NCBI GenBank assembly: GCA_000004695.1
Contig: CM000154.2
Span: 800,001-864,000 of the forward strand
DNA length: 64,000 bases
Source of the DNA: Dictyostelium discoideum
Taxonomy: Eukaryota
Direction of reading: 5' to 3'
Part shown: piece by piece, positions 25,734-33,952 of the stretch
How positions within the stretch are numbered: the first letter of the stretch is position 1
Layout of the letters: each line of letters begins with the position of its first letter
Position numbers and translations under genes: made by a program
Notes under the pieces: generated by a model
What the model saw: the letters and a program-made list of their open reading frames with translations, nothing else
Databases searched by the model: none
What the model was told of the DNA's origin: nothing

Positions 25734-26689
25734 AATAATAATAAAATATTAAATATTAAATATTTAATTAAATAAGGCTTTTTTTTTTTTTTTTTTTTTT
25801 TATATTTATTAATAAAATTATTATGCATATTATTTAATATTTTGGTACAAGGCCTCAAATCTAAAAAGGTCGGAATTTTGTTATTTTTGCGCTGGTAAAA
25901 ATTATTTTTGGTGAAAAAAAAAAAAAAAAAAAAAAAAAATTTTCACCAAAATACTGTTTTCAGCTAATAATATTTATTTATTTTATTTTTTTACTTTATT
26001 TTATTTTGTTTTATTTCATTTTTGGTTTAATTTTTTTTTAATTTAATTTTTAATTTAATTTTTTTTTCACAAATACTCTTTTATTTTTTTATTTTAATAT
26101 TATTAAATAATTTTATTTTATTTTATTTTATTTTTTTTTTTTTTTAATCTGATTATAATAATTTGACATTTATTTTAAAGATAACGATCATTTGGAAAGA
26201 TTTTTTTTTTTTTCAGTTTTTTTTTTCTTTTTTTTTTTATTTTTTTTTTTATTTTTTTTTTTTTTATTATTTTTTTTTTTTTTCGACACAATTGCACCGA
26301 CACAAATAAAAACAATATCATTATTTTATATCTAATATTAAATATATATTACATTAAATCAATTAATTATTAGTTTAATTTATTGTTTTTTTTTTTTTTT
26401 TTCCCTTATTTTGTTTATTATTATTTCATTACATAATCACCCCCTTTTTTTTTTATTTTTAATTTTTTTCATTTTTTTTTTTTTTGACAATTTTTTTTTA
26501 TTTTTCGCTCTTTATTTTGTTTTTATTTATTGGGATCATTAATATAAATTTATATCTATATCACACATTGTTTTTATTTCATAATTTCATACACCCACTT
26601 TTTTTTTTTATGACACAAAAACAATTTAAATAAAAATAAATTTACCGCTCTTTGTAAAAATAAATAAAAAAAAAAACAAATAAAAAAAC

Positions 26690-26725: not shown

Positions 26726-29401
26726 ATGGATGTAGAATTCACACCCAGTGACACAAATAAATTTGAAGCTAATATTACCAAACAACACCAAGTGATTGAA
26801 TTGAATAATCAAGAAGAACAACAACAACCAGAACAACAAGAACAACCAGAACAACAAGAAGAACTAAAAGATAATAACGAAAAGATAAAAACTAGTGAAG
26901 ATTCAACAACAACCACAACAACAACAGCAACAATTACAACCACTGGTGAAAACTCAATTTCAATTACAGTTACAGAGGCAAATAATAACACTAATCAATT
27001 AAATAAAAGCACTAGTAGCAGCAGTAGTTTAAATAATAATAAAAACGAAGACAATAAGAGTGTTACTGCATCAATTGCACCATCATCACCAGTCATTGAA
27101 TCATCTGCAATAGAATCAGCAATTGACTCACCATACATTTCATCTGCTTCAGTATTTTCAAACGCCACCAATAATAACAACAACACCACCACAACAAACG
27201 TTGTAGTACCACCACCACAATTACTTGAGTCTTCAACTGAAAATATTACATCTGCAGCTGAAATTACACCAGTGACAACAACAACAACAGAAGAGACAAT
27301 TAATATTCCAAAAGAATCAATAGAAGTACAAAAACAACTAGCAGAAACAACAACAACAGCAGCAATAACTACTACCAATTCAACACAAGTAACATCAACA
27401 ACTGTAACAAATCCAGATAAATTAAAGTGTAAAATGCATAGATCAAATTTTATAATGACACAAATTGGTGGAAAAAAATTCACAGAGATGACATTAGAAC
27501 AATTATTGGATGAAGATGACCCCCAAACTGGTATGGGGTTTAAGAATCCTGGTCCTCAAGGATTCTTAGAATATGTTGGTGATACTGCACCACCACCAAC
27601 ACCACCACCAATTTCAACATCCAACACAACTGGTAAAAATACAGGTAAAAACTCAACAACAGGTAAAAGTGAAGGCAAAAAAGCAACTTCAAACAGTTCA
27701 AATGTACCACCAAGTCCAGTACTTGCATCATCAGCTTCACCATCACCAAAATTAAAATCATCCTCATCTTCAATTAGAAATAGTGGTGCCATTTCAGGTA
27801 CAAGTGAAAATGGTGGTGGTGGTAATGGAAGTGGTACAATTTCAAAGAATACAGCACCTACAACAGGTAATTCTACTACCACCACCACCACCACCACATC
27901 TACAACAACATCATCATCAAAAGATAGAAAGAGTGTTGTTCAAAAACAATCAACATTAGGTAGATTACAAAAGAATGAAGAAGAAAGAAGAAAGAGAAAA
28001 GAACAAAAGAGAAGTCGTGCTCGTGAAAAACCAATTCTAATCGCAGGTATTGAGGATTTACCAGCTGAATGTTTAAAGATGGTAAAGAAATCAAAGATTC
28101 CAGAGGATAAATTAATTCAACACCTTAATATTTTATTACCAATACTTAGATTTAGAACTGGATATAATTTAAGACATGTACCAATTGTATCATCTAATAA
28201 TTCAACAAATTCTTTAGGTTCATCAATAAATAAAAATAATTCAAATAATACTACCACTACTACTACTACAACCAATACAAATAATAAATCACCAGAAGTC
28301 TCAACAAATAGTCTTGATGTAAATATAATAAACCAAAACCAAAACCAAACAAATTCTGTACAAAATAATCAAATTAACACAAGTTCAAATGTAATAACAA
28401 CAAATGTAATACCAACTACAACAGCATCTCAAAGTAGTCAAGCACCATACCATCCAAGTCATAACGGAAATGAAGAGGATGATTATGATGATGGATCACG
28501 TTTAGAGAATGCAATTTTACCAAAAGGTACCGTCGACTTGATTGAAACTGATAGAGACGTTAAAAAATTATATAAAAATTTAAAACAAATCGGAAGCGGT
28601 GGGTTTGGTAGTGTATTTTTAGCAAAATCAACCGTTGATAAATGTGAAATTGCCATTAAAAAGATTGCACATGTATCAGCAAAAGCACAAAGAACCAATC
28701 TCAATGAGATTGGATTTTTAAATTTCTGTAAGCATCCAAACATTGTCAGTTACTTAAGAAGTCATTTGGTTGATGATACCATTTGGATCGCTATGGAGTA
28801 TATGCAAGGTGGCACTTTAACCGAAGCAAGTCAAGGCCACACTTTCAATGAGTCGTGTATCGCTTACGTTGCAAAGGGTATGTTGGAAGGCTTAATGTAT
28901 TTACATGCTCACAACATCGTTCATAGGGATATTAAATCGGGTAACATTATGATGACCATCGATGGTAAAATCAAGATTGTCGATTTCGGTCTTTGTGTCG
29001 ACGCAAATGAAAGAAAATTAGTACATATGGCAGGTTCCCCTTTTTGGATGTCTCCAGAGATGATTCGTGGTGAGTCCTATGGCTGTCCAACCGATATTTG
29101 GAGTTTTGCAATTTGTCTTTTGGAATTGGCAAATGGTGAACCACCCCACAGAAAATCTTCCCTCACTGCTATGTTCACCACTGCAACTGAGGGTTGTGCA
29201 GGTTTGGACAAACCTGAAAGATGGACCGAACACTTTACTCATTTCTTAAATCTTTGTTTAGAAATGGATCCTTCAAAGAGATCAACTGCCGAACAACTTT
29301 TAAAACATCCTTGGATTAATTTATCTGAAAATCCTGAAACTATGAAAAAGATTTTAGCTCAAATTTTCATTGCGAATGTTATGAATCATTTAGATAATTA
29401 A
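26726..29401 (+). CDS. STE20/PAK-family serine/threonine protein kinase. It has a long T/S/N-rich N-terminal region and a C-terminal kinase domain. Single exon.
   Basis: Kinase subdomains are LKQIGSGGFGSVFLA, AIKKI, HRDIKSGNIMM, VDFGLC and GSPFWMSPE (compare PAK GTPYWMAPE). Confidence 0.85.
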   Translation: MDVEFTPSDTNKFEANITKQHQVIELNNQEEQQQPEQQEQPEQQEELKDNNEKIKTSEDSTTTTTTTATITTTGENSISITVTEANNNTNQLNKSTSSSSSLNNNKNEDNKSVTASIAPSSPVIESSAIESAIDSPYISSASVFSNATNNNNNTTTTNVVVPPPQLLESSTENITSAAEITPVTTTTTEETINIPKESIEVQKQLAETTTTAAITTTNSTQVTSTTVTNPDKLKCKMHRSNFIMTQIGGKKFTEMTLEQLLDEDDPQTGMGFKNPGPQGFLEYVGDTAPPPTPPPISTSNTTGKNTGKNSTTGKSEGKKATSNSSNVPPSPVLASSASPSPKLKSSSSSIRNSGAISGTSENGGGGNGSGTISKNTAPTTGNSTTTTTTTTSTTTSSSKDRKSVVQKQSTLGRLQKNEEERRKRKEQKRSRAREKPILIAGIEDLPAECLKMVKKSKIPEDKLIQHLNILLPILRFRTGYNLRHVPIVSSNNSTNSLGSSINKNNSNNTTTTTTTTNTNNKSPEVSTNSLDVNIINQNQNQTNSVQNNQINTSSNVITTNVIPTTTASQSSQAPYHPSHNGNEEDDYDDGSRLENAILPKGTVDLIETDRDVKKLYKNLKQIGSGGFGSVFLAKSTVDKCEIAIKKIAHVSAKAQRTNLNEIGFLNFCKHPNIVSYLRSHLVDDTIWIAMEYMQGGTLTEASQGHTFNESCIAYVAKGMLEGLMYLHAHNIVHRDIKSGNIMMTIDGKIKIVDFGLCVDANERKLVHMAGSPFWMSPEMIRGESYGCPTDIWSFAICLLELANGEPPHRKSSLTAMFTTATEGCAGLDKPERWTEHFTHFLNLCLEMDPSKRSTAEQLLKHPWINLSENPETMKKILAQIFIANVMNHLDN

Positions 29402-29409
29402 TTGGAATT

Positions 29410-29446
<37 letters not shown>

Positions 29447-29647
29447 AAACAAAACAAATCAAAAAACAAAAACAAAAAAAAACTATAAATTATTATTATT
29501 AATGAAACGAAAATAATAATATTAAAAAAAAAAAAAAAAAAAATAATCAAATAATAAAAAAAAACAATCAAATAATAAAAAAAAATTAAATAAAAAAAAA
29601 ACTTAATAATATTAAAAACTTAATGAGAAAATAAAATATAAAATTGT

Positions 29648-29923
29648 TTATTTTTTATCTTTAAAATAAACAACTAATAAAGTAATAGATTCTATAATTA
29701 CTCCAAGTAAAATCACTCCCAGAATAAATCTAAAAATTCTTTTTTTTAATTGATCATATACACCAAATGGTTTTGAATAAGGAATTTGATTTTCAATATC
29801 TTTCAAAAGAATTTCTTTATTTTTCTCCCTTTTTTTTTTTTTTATGAAAATTAATATAAATAAAAATAAAAAGTTTCAATAAAAAGGAAAATTTAATTTT
29901 AAAAAAAGTAATTACTCTTGCAT
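29648..29923 (-). CDS. Small single-TM protein A (63 aa). Exons at 29923..29916 (ATGCAAGA) and 29828..29648.
   Basis: The 8-nt first exon is followed by a GTAATT donor, then an acceptor AG at 29830/29829. The product is MQEEKNKEILLKDIENQIPYSKPFGVYDQLKKRIFRFILGVILLGVIIESITLLVVYFKDKK, with a basic patch and a C-terminal TM. Confidence 0.5.
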
Positions 29924-30567
29924 TATAATTATGATAAATTGTTTTTTTAAAAAAAGTTTTTTTTTTTTTCTTTTTATCATTAAATTGTTGTATGATTTAA
30001 TAAAAATGGTGGGAATTTGGAAAGGATTAATACATATTCATGGATTTATTTTCATAAAATAATATTTTGAGAGGTAAAACCTTGAAAAAAAAAAAAAAAA
30101 TAAAAAAATAAAAAAATAAAATTAGAAAATTTATTTTTTTTTGGAAAATTGAGAGTAAGCATCTCAAAAAAAAAAAAAAAAAAATATTTTTTTTTTAATC
30201 ATTTTTAAATTATTTTGGATGAGTTGGTGATAATTGTGTTACATTATTAAATGCATTATATGTGATATTGGATTAATGTTATTATTTTTTATATGCAAAT
30301 GATTAATTAGTTAATATTTCAAATAATTAAAAATAATAATAAAATAAAAAAAAAAAATAAAAAAATGAATAAATTAAATATTAAAAAAAAATTTAAGCAC
30401 TAAAATTTTTTTTTTTTTGACATTTTTAAATTAAAAATAATAATGGAATTATTAAATAATAGAAAATTAATTTTATAGTATATATGTACTTTGAGATGTG
30501 ATCAATCTATATTTTATTTTATTTTATTTTATTATATAATAAAAAAAAAAAAACCAATTTTAAAGAT

Positions 30568-30875
30568 TAATAGGGTTTAAAATTTTCCAAGCCAATTATT
30601 ATTTTAATTTATTAACAAAAGTGGCTGCACAAGTTGCAATTAAAGCAATCAAAATAATAGTAAGGAAACATAAAAGTGTTCTCCATTGTCTTTGTTTTTT
30701 AAGTTGGAGTTCCTTTTGGATTGTTGTTTCGGACTCATTAGTTTTTTGGTTATTTCCAACTTCAATTTCAATATCTTTTACAACTATTTGTTGTGTTGTT
30801 CTATTAAAATTAAAATTAAAGTTAATATAATTTTTAAAATGAAATAAATAATATAATATGATATTACTCTCCCAT
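30568..30875 (-). CDS. Small single-TM protein B (about 80 aa), paralogue of A. Exons at 30875..30868 (ATGGGAGA) and 30800..30568.
   Basis: Same 8-nt exon 1 plus a GTAATA donor, and a 67-nt AT intron ending ttttaatag. The product is MGETTQQIVVKDIEIEVGNNQKTNESETTIQKELQLKKQRQWRTLLCFLTIILIALIATCAATFVNKLKLIIGLENFKPY. Confidence 0.55.
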
Positions 30876-30960
30876 TATAAAATGTAATAAAGTTTTAAAG
30901 TTTTTAATTTAATTTAAAGTTTGTAGTTTTAGATAATAAAATTATTATTTTTCATTTTTA

Positions 30961-31020
<60 letters not shown>

Positions 31021-31705
31021 ATTGCTTCAATGAAACTTAATTAATGAATTGCAGCCTTTTTAAAAAAAATAATTATATACATATAAATAAAAAAAGGTGG
31101 GAAATATTTGGTTTATGATCTTCAATTCATATGGATTGCAACGTGTTTGTTTTAATTTAAAAAAAAAAAAAAAATTAAAAATAAAAAAATAAATTTTCGT
31201 TGAAAACCTAAAATAAAAAAAAAAAAAAATGATGAAACTGGTTAGATTTTTGGTATTGAATAAATTAAAATTTCATTATAAGATATACAATATAAACTTT
31301 TCTTTTAATTGTTTTGATTTTATTTGATTTTATTAATTAATATATATATATATATTTTATTTAAAGTTTTTGGAATGGGATTTTTTTGTTATTGATAAAA
31401 TTTCAAAACACTATTTATTATTTTTATTTTTATTTTAATTTTTTTTTTTTTATAATTTAAAATTTAAAATTTAATATTTTATAATATTAATTATTTTATT
31501 TTATTTTGGATGAAAGGTTATTTTCTTGGTAAAAATTTCTTTTTTGTTTTATTCATTTTAACCAAGTTACATTATTACAAAATCCATTTCTTTTTTTATT
31601 ATTTTTTTTTTTATTTTTATTTTTTTTTTCAATCGGAATGTTAATTAAAAACTTTGAGAAAATTGAAATCTATCAATGAAGATTTGATTTACCTCTTCTT
31701 TATTT

Positions 31706-32057
31706 TTATTTGATGGTAGTGGTAAGAATAGGAACTATTATTGCAACCATTGCAATTATTAAAAGTAATGTTATGAGAATTTTAAATTGAATTCTCTTTT
31801 TTTTTTCTTTGTTATATTCTTCATTAGCTTTTCTTGATTGCTCTAGTGTGATTGAATAAGATGTTTTTTCAAAATCTTTTGAACCCCTATTATCTAATAA
31901 AAAGCTATCACCAATCCCTATTATTTTTTTATTATTATTACTTTTTGTATTTTTTTTTTTTTTTTTTTTTTTATTATGTTTGAGTACTTTTTTTTTAAAA
32001 AAGAAGATATAAAAATTAAATATTTAATTATTTTTTTTTTTATATTTACTCTCCCAT
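31706..32057 (-). CDS. Small single-TM protein C (about 85 aa), paralogue of A and B. Exon 1 is 32057..32050 (ATGGGAGA). Exon 2 is approximately 31940..31706, with the acceptor uncertain.
   Basis: Identical first exon ATGGGAGA plus a GTAAAT donor. The downstream ORF is ...IIGIGDSFLLDNRGSKDFEKTSYSITLEQSRKANEEYNKEKKKRIQFKILITLLLIIAMVAIIVPILTTTIK*. The phase-2 acceptor candidate aaaaag|t lies at 31942/31941. Confidence 0.45.
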
Positions 32058-33037
32058 TTTTAAAAATTATAATTAAATGATTTTCTGTTTATTTAAATTT
32101 CTATTTATATTTTTGTTTTTTTTTTTTTTTTTTTTTTTTTGCTAAAGGTTATTTATAAAATTTGCAAGCATTGCATAGGTTAGTTTATAATTAATAAAAA
32201 TCGTATTTTAATTTTTTTTTTGAATTTTTGAATTTTGATCATAAAAAAAAAAAAAAGTGTTGTAACCTTCCCCAAATGGATTTTTTTTTAAAAAAAAAAA
32301 ATTATTTTTATTTTATTTTATTTTTTTTTTTTTTTAAAAATTTTATTTTTTTTTTTTTTTAAAAATTTTATTTTATTTTTTTTTTTTCATTGTTTATTTT
32401 TAGTTCAATCATTTACTAAAACCTTTATCTTGTGATTAATTACTTTTTTAAATTATTTTCTTTATTTTTTTAATTTTTTATATTCAAATTGGTTCCTAAC
32501 ATATTCGAATTGGTTCCTAACATCCAAATTTGATTCAAATAAATTTTTTTATTTTATTTTTTTTATATTTTATATCATTTTGTGTATTTTTGAGTATTCT
32601 ATTTTTTTTATACCAACTTAATAAAAATAAATAAAATTAAATAGTTAATAAAAAAAAAAATATGAATATTAAAATAAAATCATTTTAATTTTAAGTGTAA
32701 AAATAATGTTTTATTTAATAATATTCGCAAGGATATTAATTTTTTTTTTAAATTATTTATTAAAACGATAATATTATAAAATTTGATTAAACATTATTTA
32801 CTTTTTTATATTTTAAAAAAAAAAAAAAATTTCTGGAAATTTTCAAATTCGAATATTTTATGAGAAAAGATCATGATCAAAAAAGGAAATGGTGTGTTGC
32901 TGTGAGATGAATGATCAAATTTTTTTTTTAAAATAATAATTTTTTACAATATTTTTTTTTTCTTTTTTTTTTTTTTTTCATTTAGTTATCAATTTTAAGT
33001 AATAAAGATAAAAAAAAAAATAAAAAATAAAAACAAA

Positions 33038-33203
33038 ATGTCTATAAAATCAAAAACAAATTCAGTAAAACATGAACCATATCTATATAGACCAACAAAT
33101 ATTTTAACTAGGTCAAGAACCAAGGCATTTGATGAATCATGTACTATAAAAGAAAAAGATAAAGGATTCAAATCAACTTATATCAAAGCTAAAACCATTC
33201 AAA

Positions 33204-33245
<42 letters not shown>

Positions 33246-33884
33246 AATAAGTTACTTTTTTTTTTTATTTTTTGTTTGTCATTAATATTTAAATAAAGGA
33301 AAAAAAAACAAATAAAAGAGTCATTAGATGAAGAAATAATTGAGCCAAAAGATTTTGATATTAAAGATTCTTGTGAAAATGAAGATAATTGTGAAAATGA
33401 TTTTAGTGGTGATGAAGAAATTGATAATAATTTAACAAATAAAAAATTAATAGAAAAAAAAAAACATTGTCTTGTTGAAGCAAAGTGTAGAAGAAGAAGA
33501 ATTGAACTTTACAAAAATTTACACAACGTTATTGAATCAATTGAAGAAAAGTTAAATCACCAAATCCCACTCTATAAAATAATTGATAATAGAAGAAAAG
33601 TTGATATAAAAAATGGAAAATATACTCAAGAACACATACTCCGAAAAATTTATTCCACCATTTTAATCAATGAAAAATTTATTAAAAATAATAATCAATC
33701 AAAAAATTTAATAAATTCAAATAATGACACAATTGAAGATGAAAATAAAAATGAAAATGAAAATGAAGATGAAAATGAAAATGAAAATGAAAATATTGGT
33801 GAAATTAAACAAAATCCAATTGAAAAAATTGGTTATTATGGATTAAAGAACTTGCTTCTTGCAAGTGAAATTGACGGTGAATAA
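33038..33884 (+). CDS. Hypothetical 250-aa protein with a possible bHLH-like basic-helix segment and an acidic (ENENED)n tail. Two exons at 33038..33204 and 33299..33884.
   Basis: AG|GTAAAA donor and a phase-2 acceptor at 33297/98. The candidate bHLH segment is KKKHCLVEAKCRRRRIELYKNLHNVIESIEEKL, which fits the H-x3-E-x2-RR-x-I pattern. Confidence 0.5.
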
Positions 33885-33952
33885 AAAAAAAAAACAATAA
33901 TAATAATAATAATAAAATAGTACCTTTTGCAATATATAAATTTATTTTATTT

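Follow-up and report, generated by a model that had tools for sequence, protein, structure and literature searches.

Between a protein-kinase gene and DDB_G0287907 on chromosome 5 of Dictyostelium discoideum, three short candidate genes lie in tandem on the minus strand, each opening with a coding micro-exon of eight nucleotides. The question raised by this locus is whether the three candidates, here called genes A, B and C, are genuine and related genes, and what kind of protein they would encode. The window, that is the whole stretch of DNA that was analysed, comprises 64 kb of very low GC content (about 16-30% GC per 2-kb bin) with long homopolymer runs, and neither an Rfam family nor a tRNA was found in it. 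The three candidates occupy 2.4 kb of a 3.6-kb gap. On one side the gap is bordered by an open reading frame with a Pkinase domain (26726-29401, plus strand) and on the other by DDB_G0287907 (exons 33038-33205 and 33299-33885, plus strand), whose spliced product is exactly XP_636986.1/Q54JP8. Past DDB_G0287907 an M16-peptidase-like open reading frame follows on the minus strand. The intron of the confirmed neighbour DDB_G0287907 is 93 nt long and runs from GTAA to AAAG, and the introns of A, B and C are similar in style. A pattern search and a scan of micro-exon models found no fourth copy within the window.

Gene models were built by reading the minus strand and enumerating GT...AG introns. 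In gene A (DDB_G0287865), the coding part of exon 1, ATGCAAGA, occupies 29916-29923 and is followed by the GTAA donor of a phase-2 intron of 87 nt (29829-29915, GTAATT...AAAAAG); exon 2, including the TAA stop, covers 29648-29828 and completes a 62-aa product. Gene B (DDB_G0287903) opens with ATGGGAGA at 30868-30875, again followed by a GTAA donor, and continues through a phase-2 intron of 67 nt (30801-30867, GTAATA...TTAATAG) into an exon 2 at 30599-30800 that includes the TAA stop, giving a product of 69 aa. The unannotated gene C has the same ATGGGAGA and GTAA donor, with the coding part of exon 1 at 32050-32057. Its longest model joins this, across a phase-2 intron of 109 nt (31941-32049), to an exon 2 at 31706-31940 with a TAA stop, for a product of 80 aa. 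Two other in-frame acceptors in gene C would start exon 2 from 31904 (145-nt intron, 68 aa) or from 31886 (163-nt intron, 62 aa). The micro-exon is ATG plus five nucleotides in each gene, and the introns (67-109 nt) are AT-rich and all in phase 2. There is no in-frame ATG in the stop-free exon-2 frames of A and B, and in C no ATG precedes the hydrophobic segment; the start codon must therefore come from the micro-exon. The peptide ILLKDIENQIPYSK is an example from the predicted second-exon products. An earlier note on this DNA had proposed three spliced minus-strand models with an 8-nt exon 1, a GTAA donor and a phase-2 intron, and all three are present as described. Its coordinates stand except for the end of gene B, placed at 30568, which is 31 nt too far and is corrected here to 30599. 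The intron range it gave, 70-110 nt, holds for A and C, but the gene B intron falls just under it, and its protein lengths of 63-85 aa were slightly off.

Genes A and B are not new, since the AX4 reference already lists them, micro-exons included, as hypothetical proteins. The spliced product of gene A is identical, residue for residue, to XP_637102.1/Q54JQ0, named 'Putative uncharacterized transmembrane protein', and that of gene B to XP_637103.1/Q54JP9, named 'Transmembrane protein'. These source names mention neither paralogy nor a three-gene cluster, and the reference proteome contains nothing that corresponds to gene C. Five alternative products or fragments of gene C were all absent from the deposited proteins, a word-indexed protein search with its 80-aa product gave no match at E <= 10, and a search of 1.84 billion representatives with a three-sequence profile did not bring it up. 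Q54JQ0, Q54JP9 and Q54JP8, the UniProt accessions of A, B and DDB_G0287907, are consecutive; if accessions track gene order, they would leave no room for a further protein between B and DDB_G0287907. Gene C is probably an unannotated paralogue missing from the AX4 annotation. Contrary to what the earlier note implied, the three genes are thus not all unannotated, and only C is missing. The gene identifiers and UniProt accessions of A and B were not found in the literature searched. They were also absent from the transcriptome and proteome supplements of PMC6198379, PMC12821622 and PMC4403905, the last of which lists neighbouring identifiers and holds selected gene sets only.

The locus was also compared with a newer D. 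discoideum assembly, GCA_054883475.1, which encodes DDB_G0287907 on CM142511.1 and whose DNA matches the window with 99.45% identity across 12 kb. The annotation of that assembly has no gene between the kinase gene and DDB_G0287907, leaving A, B and C all uncalled. Across the cluster, three homopolymers vary in length between the assemblies, and two single bases differ, one of them intergenic (31207) and the other inside gene C (31879). A and B show no difference, and base 31879 is the sole coding difference in the cluster. The change converts the conserved K of a K-D-F-E motif in gene C to E, and the frame stays open.

Descent of A, B and C from one ancestor is well supported by the position and phase of the intron, the start/donor block, an in-frame 13-mer, the order of the parts and the tandem placement on the same strand. 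ATGNNAGAGTAA matches three times in total across the two strands of the window, only at the starts of A, B and C, where 0.08 matches were expected and none of 100 shuffles reached three. The start/donor blocks of B and C are alike at 12/12 bases. The in-frame 13-mer AAAGATWTTGAAA, encoding K-D-I/F-E, also has three matches in the window (0.21 expected), all in the second exons of A, B and C. On the minus strand, this conserved block reads AAAGATATTGAAA in gene A (29791-29803, K12-D-I-E) and in gene B (30766-30778, K11-D-I-E), and AAAGATTTTGAAA in gene C (31867-31879, K24-D-F-E in the 80-aa model, with the K at position 12 in the 68-aa model). A KDIE motif had been described in A and B and is present there, but it is not limited to those two, since C carries K-D-F-E. 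A 4-residue motif common to all three soluble parts arises in 339 of 20000 shuffles (1.7%, p about 0.017).

The view of the earlier note that these are duplicated genes is thus supported by ATGNNAGAGTAA and AAAGATWTTGAAA, which are confined to A, B and C, whereas relatedness was not shown by protein alignment alone. The note had held that the idea would fail if the three frames proved unrelated by statistical alignment. Protein BLASTP aligned A with B at E = 0.81 and B with C at E = 4.2, and gave no alignment of A with C. In a shuffle test on the soluble and the hydrophobic parts separately, the signal was marginal for A-B (p about 0.01) and B-C (p 0.02-0.05) and not significant for A-C (p 0.2-0.3). 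When B and C were aligned without gaps from the K-D-x-E block onward to the C-terminus, p was 0.15, and the alignment of all three is too divergent for building search patterns. Putative homology at the level of the protein sequences is weakly supported. Plain blastn between the repeat units was swamped by AT-rich low complexity, and GC-weighted local alignment of the three units against real intergenic controls revealed no significant DNA similarity. Shared GC-containing upstream k-mers were likewise not significant, save a weak p = 0.04 for two 7-mers found in all three. On the minus strand upstream of gene A (30008-30046), AATCCAT is followed by TTCCCACC from 31 nt after the AATCCAT start; upstream of gene B (31096-31137), the same pair recurs with TTCCCACC from 34 nt after it. 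This possible shared element is a lead. It was not significant in the alignment or k-mer tests, and promoter homology is therefore not claimed.

Outside the large open reading frames, about 30 kb of unmasked sequence contains 109 stop-free stretches of 55 codons or more. Only A, B and C among the 109 join a complex hydrophilic head to a single C-terminal hydrophobic segment, and the pattern that they share exceeds chance. In each of the three genes, the proposed frame has the highest codon-usage score among the six, and GC content falls by codon position in the order GC1 > GC2 > GC3, a trend also seen in the window's large genes. The exon-2 scores per codon are 0.71 for B (rank 6 of 109), 0.35 for C (rank 20 of 109) and 0.06 for A (rank 39 of 109). 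For comparison, the same measure gives 0.29 and 0.53 for the two confirmed exons of DDB_G0287907. Gene B thus scores like real exons, and the score of gene A is weak and near zero.

The three products share one layout: the N-terminal part is hydrophilic, a basic patch comes next, and a hydrophobic stretch of 22-23 residues then leaves only 1-4 residues as a C-terminal tail. The basic patches are KKRIFR in A, KKQRQWR in B and KEKKKRIQFK in C, with 5-6 basic residues and a net charge of +3 to +4. The hydrophobic segment extends from F37 to F58 in gene A (29663-29728), from T44 to V65 in gene B (30614-30679) and from I57 to I79 in gene C (31712-31780), leaving tails of four (KDKK), four (NKLK) and one (K) residues. 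The best 19-residue Kyte-Doolittle mean is 2.6-3.3 within the last 30 residues and at most 0.53 elsewhere. Flanking charge is net +3 to +4 on the N-terminal side of the segment versus +1 to +2 on the C-terminal side. The tail-anchored topology suggested earlier is consistent with this hydropathy and these charges, the C-terminal hydrophobic segment being the only one and no N-terminal signal being present. An AlphaFold model of gene B is one long helix with a pLDDT of 69, confident only in the hydrophobic segment and without a tertiary fold; the charged N-terminal part of all three products is probably helical. Lipid modification at the other end was also considered. N-myristoylation (PROSITE PS00008) usually requires Gly2 followed by a residue other than E, D, K or R. 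This rule excludes B and C, which start with MGE and MGD, and A starts with MQE and has no Gly2.

Small size, no signal peptide, a basic juxtamembrane stretch, an anchor at the extreme C-terminus and an expected post-translational insertion are common to RAMP4/SERP1, Sec61 beta and gamma, and phospholamban-type regulators. A, B and C resemble these proteins in architecture alone, with no sequence or profile similarity to them. In word-indexed searches of 5.8 billion clustered proteins, A and B each retrieved only themselves. The profile of A, B and C, searched against the 1.84 billion representatives, returned only A, B and one low-complexity ENA protein. Pfam-A hmmscan at E <= 10 assigned no family to any of the three products. 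It returned only unrelated families far below their cut-offs, and RAMP4 (PF06624) was not among them. A sequence search of the PDB found no related solved structure, and metagenome scans with gene B and with exon 2 of gene C yielded no relatives. The resemblance to the RAMP4/SERP class proposed in the earlier note is therefore one of topology. That the three are divergent members of this class of ribosome- and translocon-associated tail-anchored proteins would fit their size and topology only (a length of about 65 residues, with a basic part in the cytosol and an anchor at the C-terminus). Against the Pfam, profile and structure searches, it is highly improbable and effectively refuted at the sequence level.

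Collectively, these results suggest, with a probability of about 0.6, that A, B and C form a tandem cluster of paralogous, species-restricted small D. discoideum genes encoding fast-diverging tail-anchored microproteins. As the sequence shows, the micro-exon provides the start codon in each gene, and phase-2 splicing links it to the only other coding exon. By the rules for tail-anchored proteins, the anchor would still lie in the ribosome tunnel when translation ends; because it could not exit the ribosome before termination, insertion would be post-translational, by a GET/TRC40- or EMC-type route. The flanking charges predict that the basic N-terminal side remains cytosolic. The cluster itself would have arisen by tandem duplication followed by fast divergence, in which the start/splice block, the K-D-I/F-E block and the layout of basic patch plus anchor were kept. 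As for a putative role, no more can be suggested than a small adaptor or regulator bound to a membrane. Several observations weigh against the paralogous-gene reading as a whole: the literature and supplements searched gave no sign of transcripts or proteins, the newer annotation calls none of the three, cross-species conservation cannot be shown with no homologues, protein similarity between the copies is at best marginal, the codon score of gene A is near zero, the K to E change at 31879 hits the conserved block of gene C, and upstream similarity is not significant.

The same absence of homologues could be read differently, with A, B and C as homologous copies of DNA but not functional genes, either proto-genes or decaying duplicates in T-rich intergenic DNA. 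A and B would then owe their place in the reference solely to an ab initio gene finder that took an ATG, a GTAA donor and an open frame as sufficient. The reference names, which go no further than 'hypothetical' or 'putative uncharacterized', are in keeping with this, as are the independent annotation of 99.45% identical DNA, which calls none of the three, and the weak coding score of gene A. Stop-free stretches of at least 55 codons are also common here (the 109 in about 30 kb), and T-rich DNA readily encodes hydrophobic segments (PMC7005711). However, the start, donor, a usable acceptor, the frame, the basic patch and the anchor are intact in 3/3 copies, while the flanks and most of the coding DNA have diverged beyond recognition. 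Such intact features amid diverged DNA are the pattern expected under selection on the product. That all three copies score highest in the proposed frame out of six, with gene-like codon-position GC, and that gene B scores like real exons, also argue against non-functional copies, an explanation that we consider doubtful but not negligible. A narrower possibility is that A and B are real genes and C is a pseudogene or dead copy, which would explain its lack of annotation. C is absent from all protein sets searched, its acceptor is ambiguous among three in-frame options, and the sole coding difference between the assemblies strikes the conserved K of its K-D-F-E. Yet its start/donor block is the same as that of B over 12 bases, it has an open frame of 77 codons with a clean basic patch and anchor at the end, and its codon score of 0.35 exceeds the 0.06 of the annotated gene A. 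Loss of function in C alone is thus distinctly unlikely.

That no relatives were found and that the copies have diverged so strongly points to either a fast-evolving dispensable function or young genes. Vakirlis et al. 2020 (PMC7005711) described de novo membrane microproteins from thymine-rich non-genic sequence in yeast. Like those microproteins, A, B and C are short and of restricted taxonomic range, have hydrophobic segments of T-rich codons and lie in a very AT-rich intergenic setting. In contrast to them, they exist in triplicate, have a spliced micro-exon and share sequence blocks, which implies that at least the last steps were duplication and not independent birth. It is conceivable, if unlikely, that they are a young family found only in D. 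discoideum. On this view, T-rich intergenic DNA would have given rise de novo to the ancestor, starting with its hydrophobic segment, and tandem expansion to three copies would have followed, with the micro-exon kept as the only source of a start codon and one member left unannotated.

For the paralogous tail-anchored microproteins favoured here, the practical yield is modest, namely one gene of roughly 80 residues beside DDB_G0287903 that is probably missing from the AX4 annotation. This is a minor annotation finding with no bearing on a long-standing open question. DDB_G0287865 and DDB_G0287903 can now be read as part of a three-copy family defined by gene structure and not by sequence similarity. 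The locus also illustrates that micro-exon starts hide small genes from callers based on open reading frames and from some evidence-based ones, the newer annotation having missed all three. Should the genes prove to be expressed, they would offer a handy example of tail-anchored microproteins that diverge fast and are restricted to one lineage.

The three tandem minus-strand small genes with 8-nt first exons, the reference genes DDB_G0287865 (gene A) and DDB_G0287903 (gene B) and their probable unannotated paralogue (gene C), were compared with L001, the corresponding stretch of CM142511.1 in the newer D. discoideum assembly GCA_054883475.1. The annotation of that assembly places no genes in L001 6400-10000, which corresponds to window 29402-33037, so that DDB_G0287865, DDB_G0287903 and gene C are all absent from it. 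Small micro-exon genes may have been lost systematically from the newer annotation.

Twelve of the 14 base substitutions separating the two assemblies fall within window 26024-26534 (L001 3026-3536), an AT-rich stretch of ~500 bp upstream of the plus-strand protein-kinase ORF that flanks the cluster. Such clustering is more suggestive of a local misassembly or a faulty consensus in one of the two records than of true polymorphism. A run of 100 consecutive N at window 45392-45491 marks an assembly gap of the source record.

Further along the window, two near-perfect inverted-repeat arms of 186 nt (49432-49617 and 49650-49835) are 99% complementary and separated by a 32-nt spacer. The GC content of the repeat is far above that of the adjoining DNA, and the repeat gives mirrored open stretches of 76 codons on both strands. 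Rfam and tRNA searches returned no match for the repeat. It might be the end of a transposon or else some palindromic element.

Upstream of gene B, the promoter-proximal poly(A/T) run at window 30965-30993 is 29 nt shorter in GCA_054883475.1; this homopolymer is either unstable in length or has been resolved poorly. All three genes carry AATCCAT 120-260 nt upstream, within the intervals 30008-30046 (A), 31096-31137 (B) and 32276-32282 (C). In the upstream regions of A and B, TTCCCACC follows, starting 31 nt and 34 nt, respectively, past the start of AATCCAT. The pattern may represent a regulatory element common to the genes, but compared with intergenic controls it did not reach significance.
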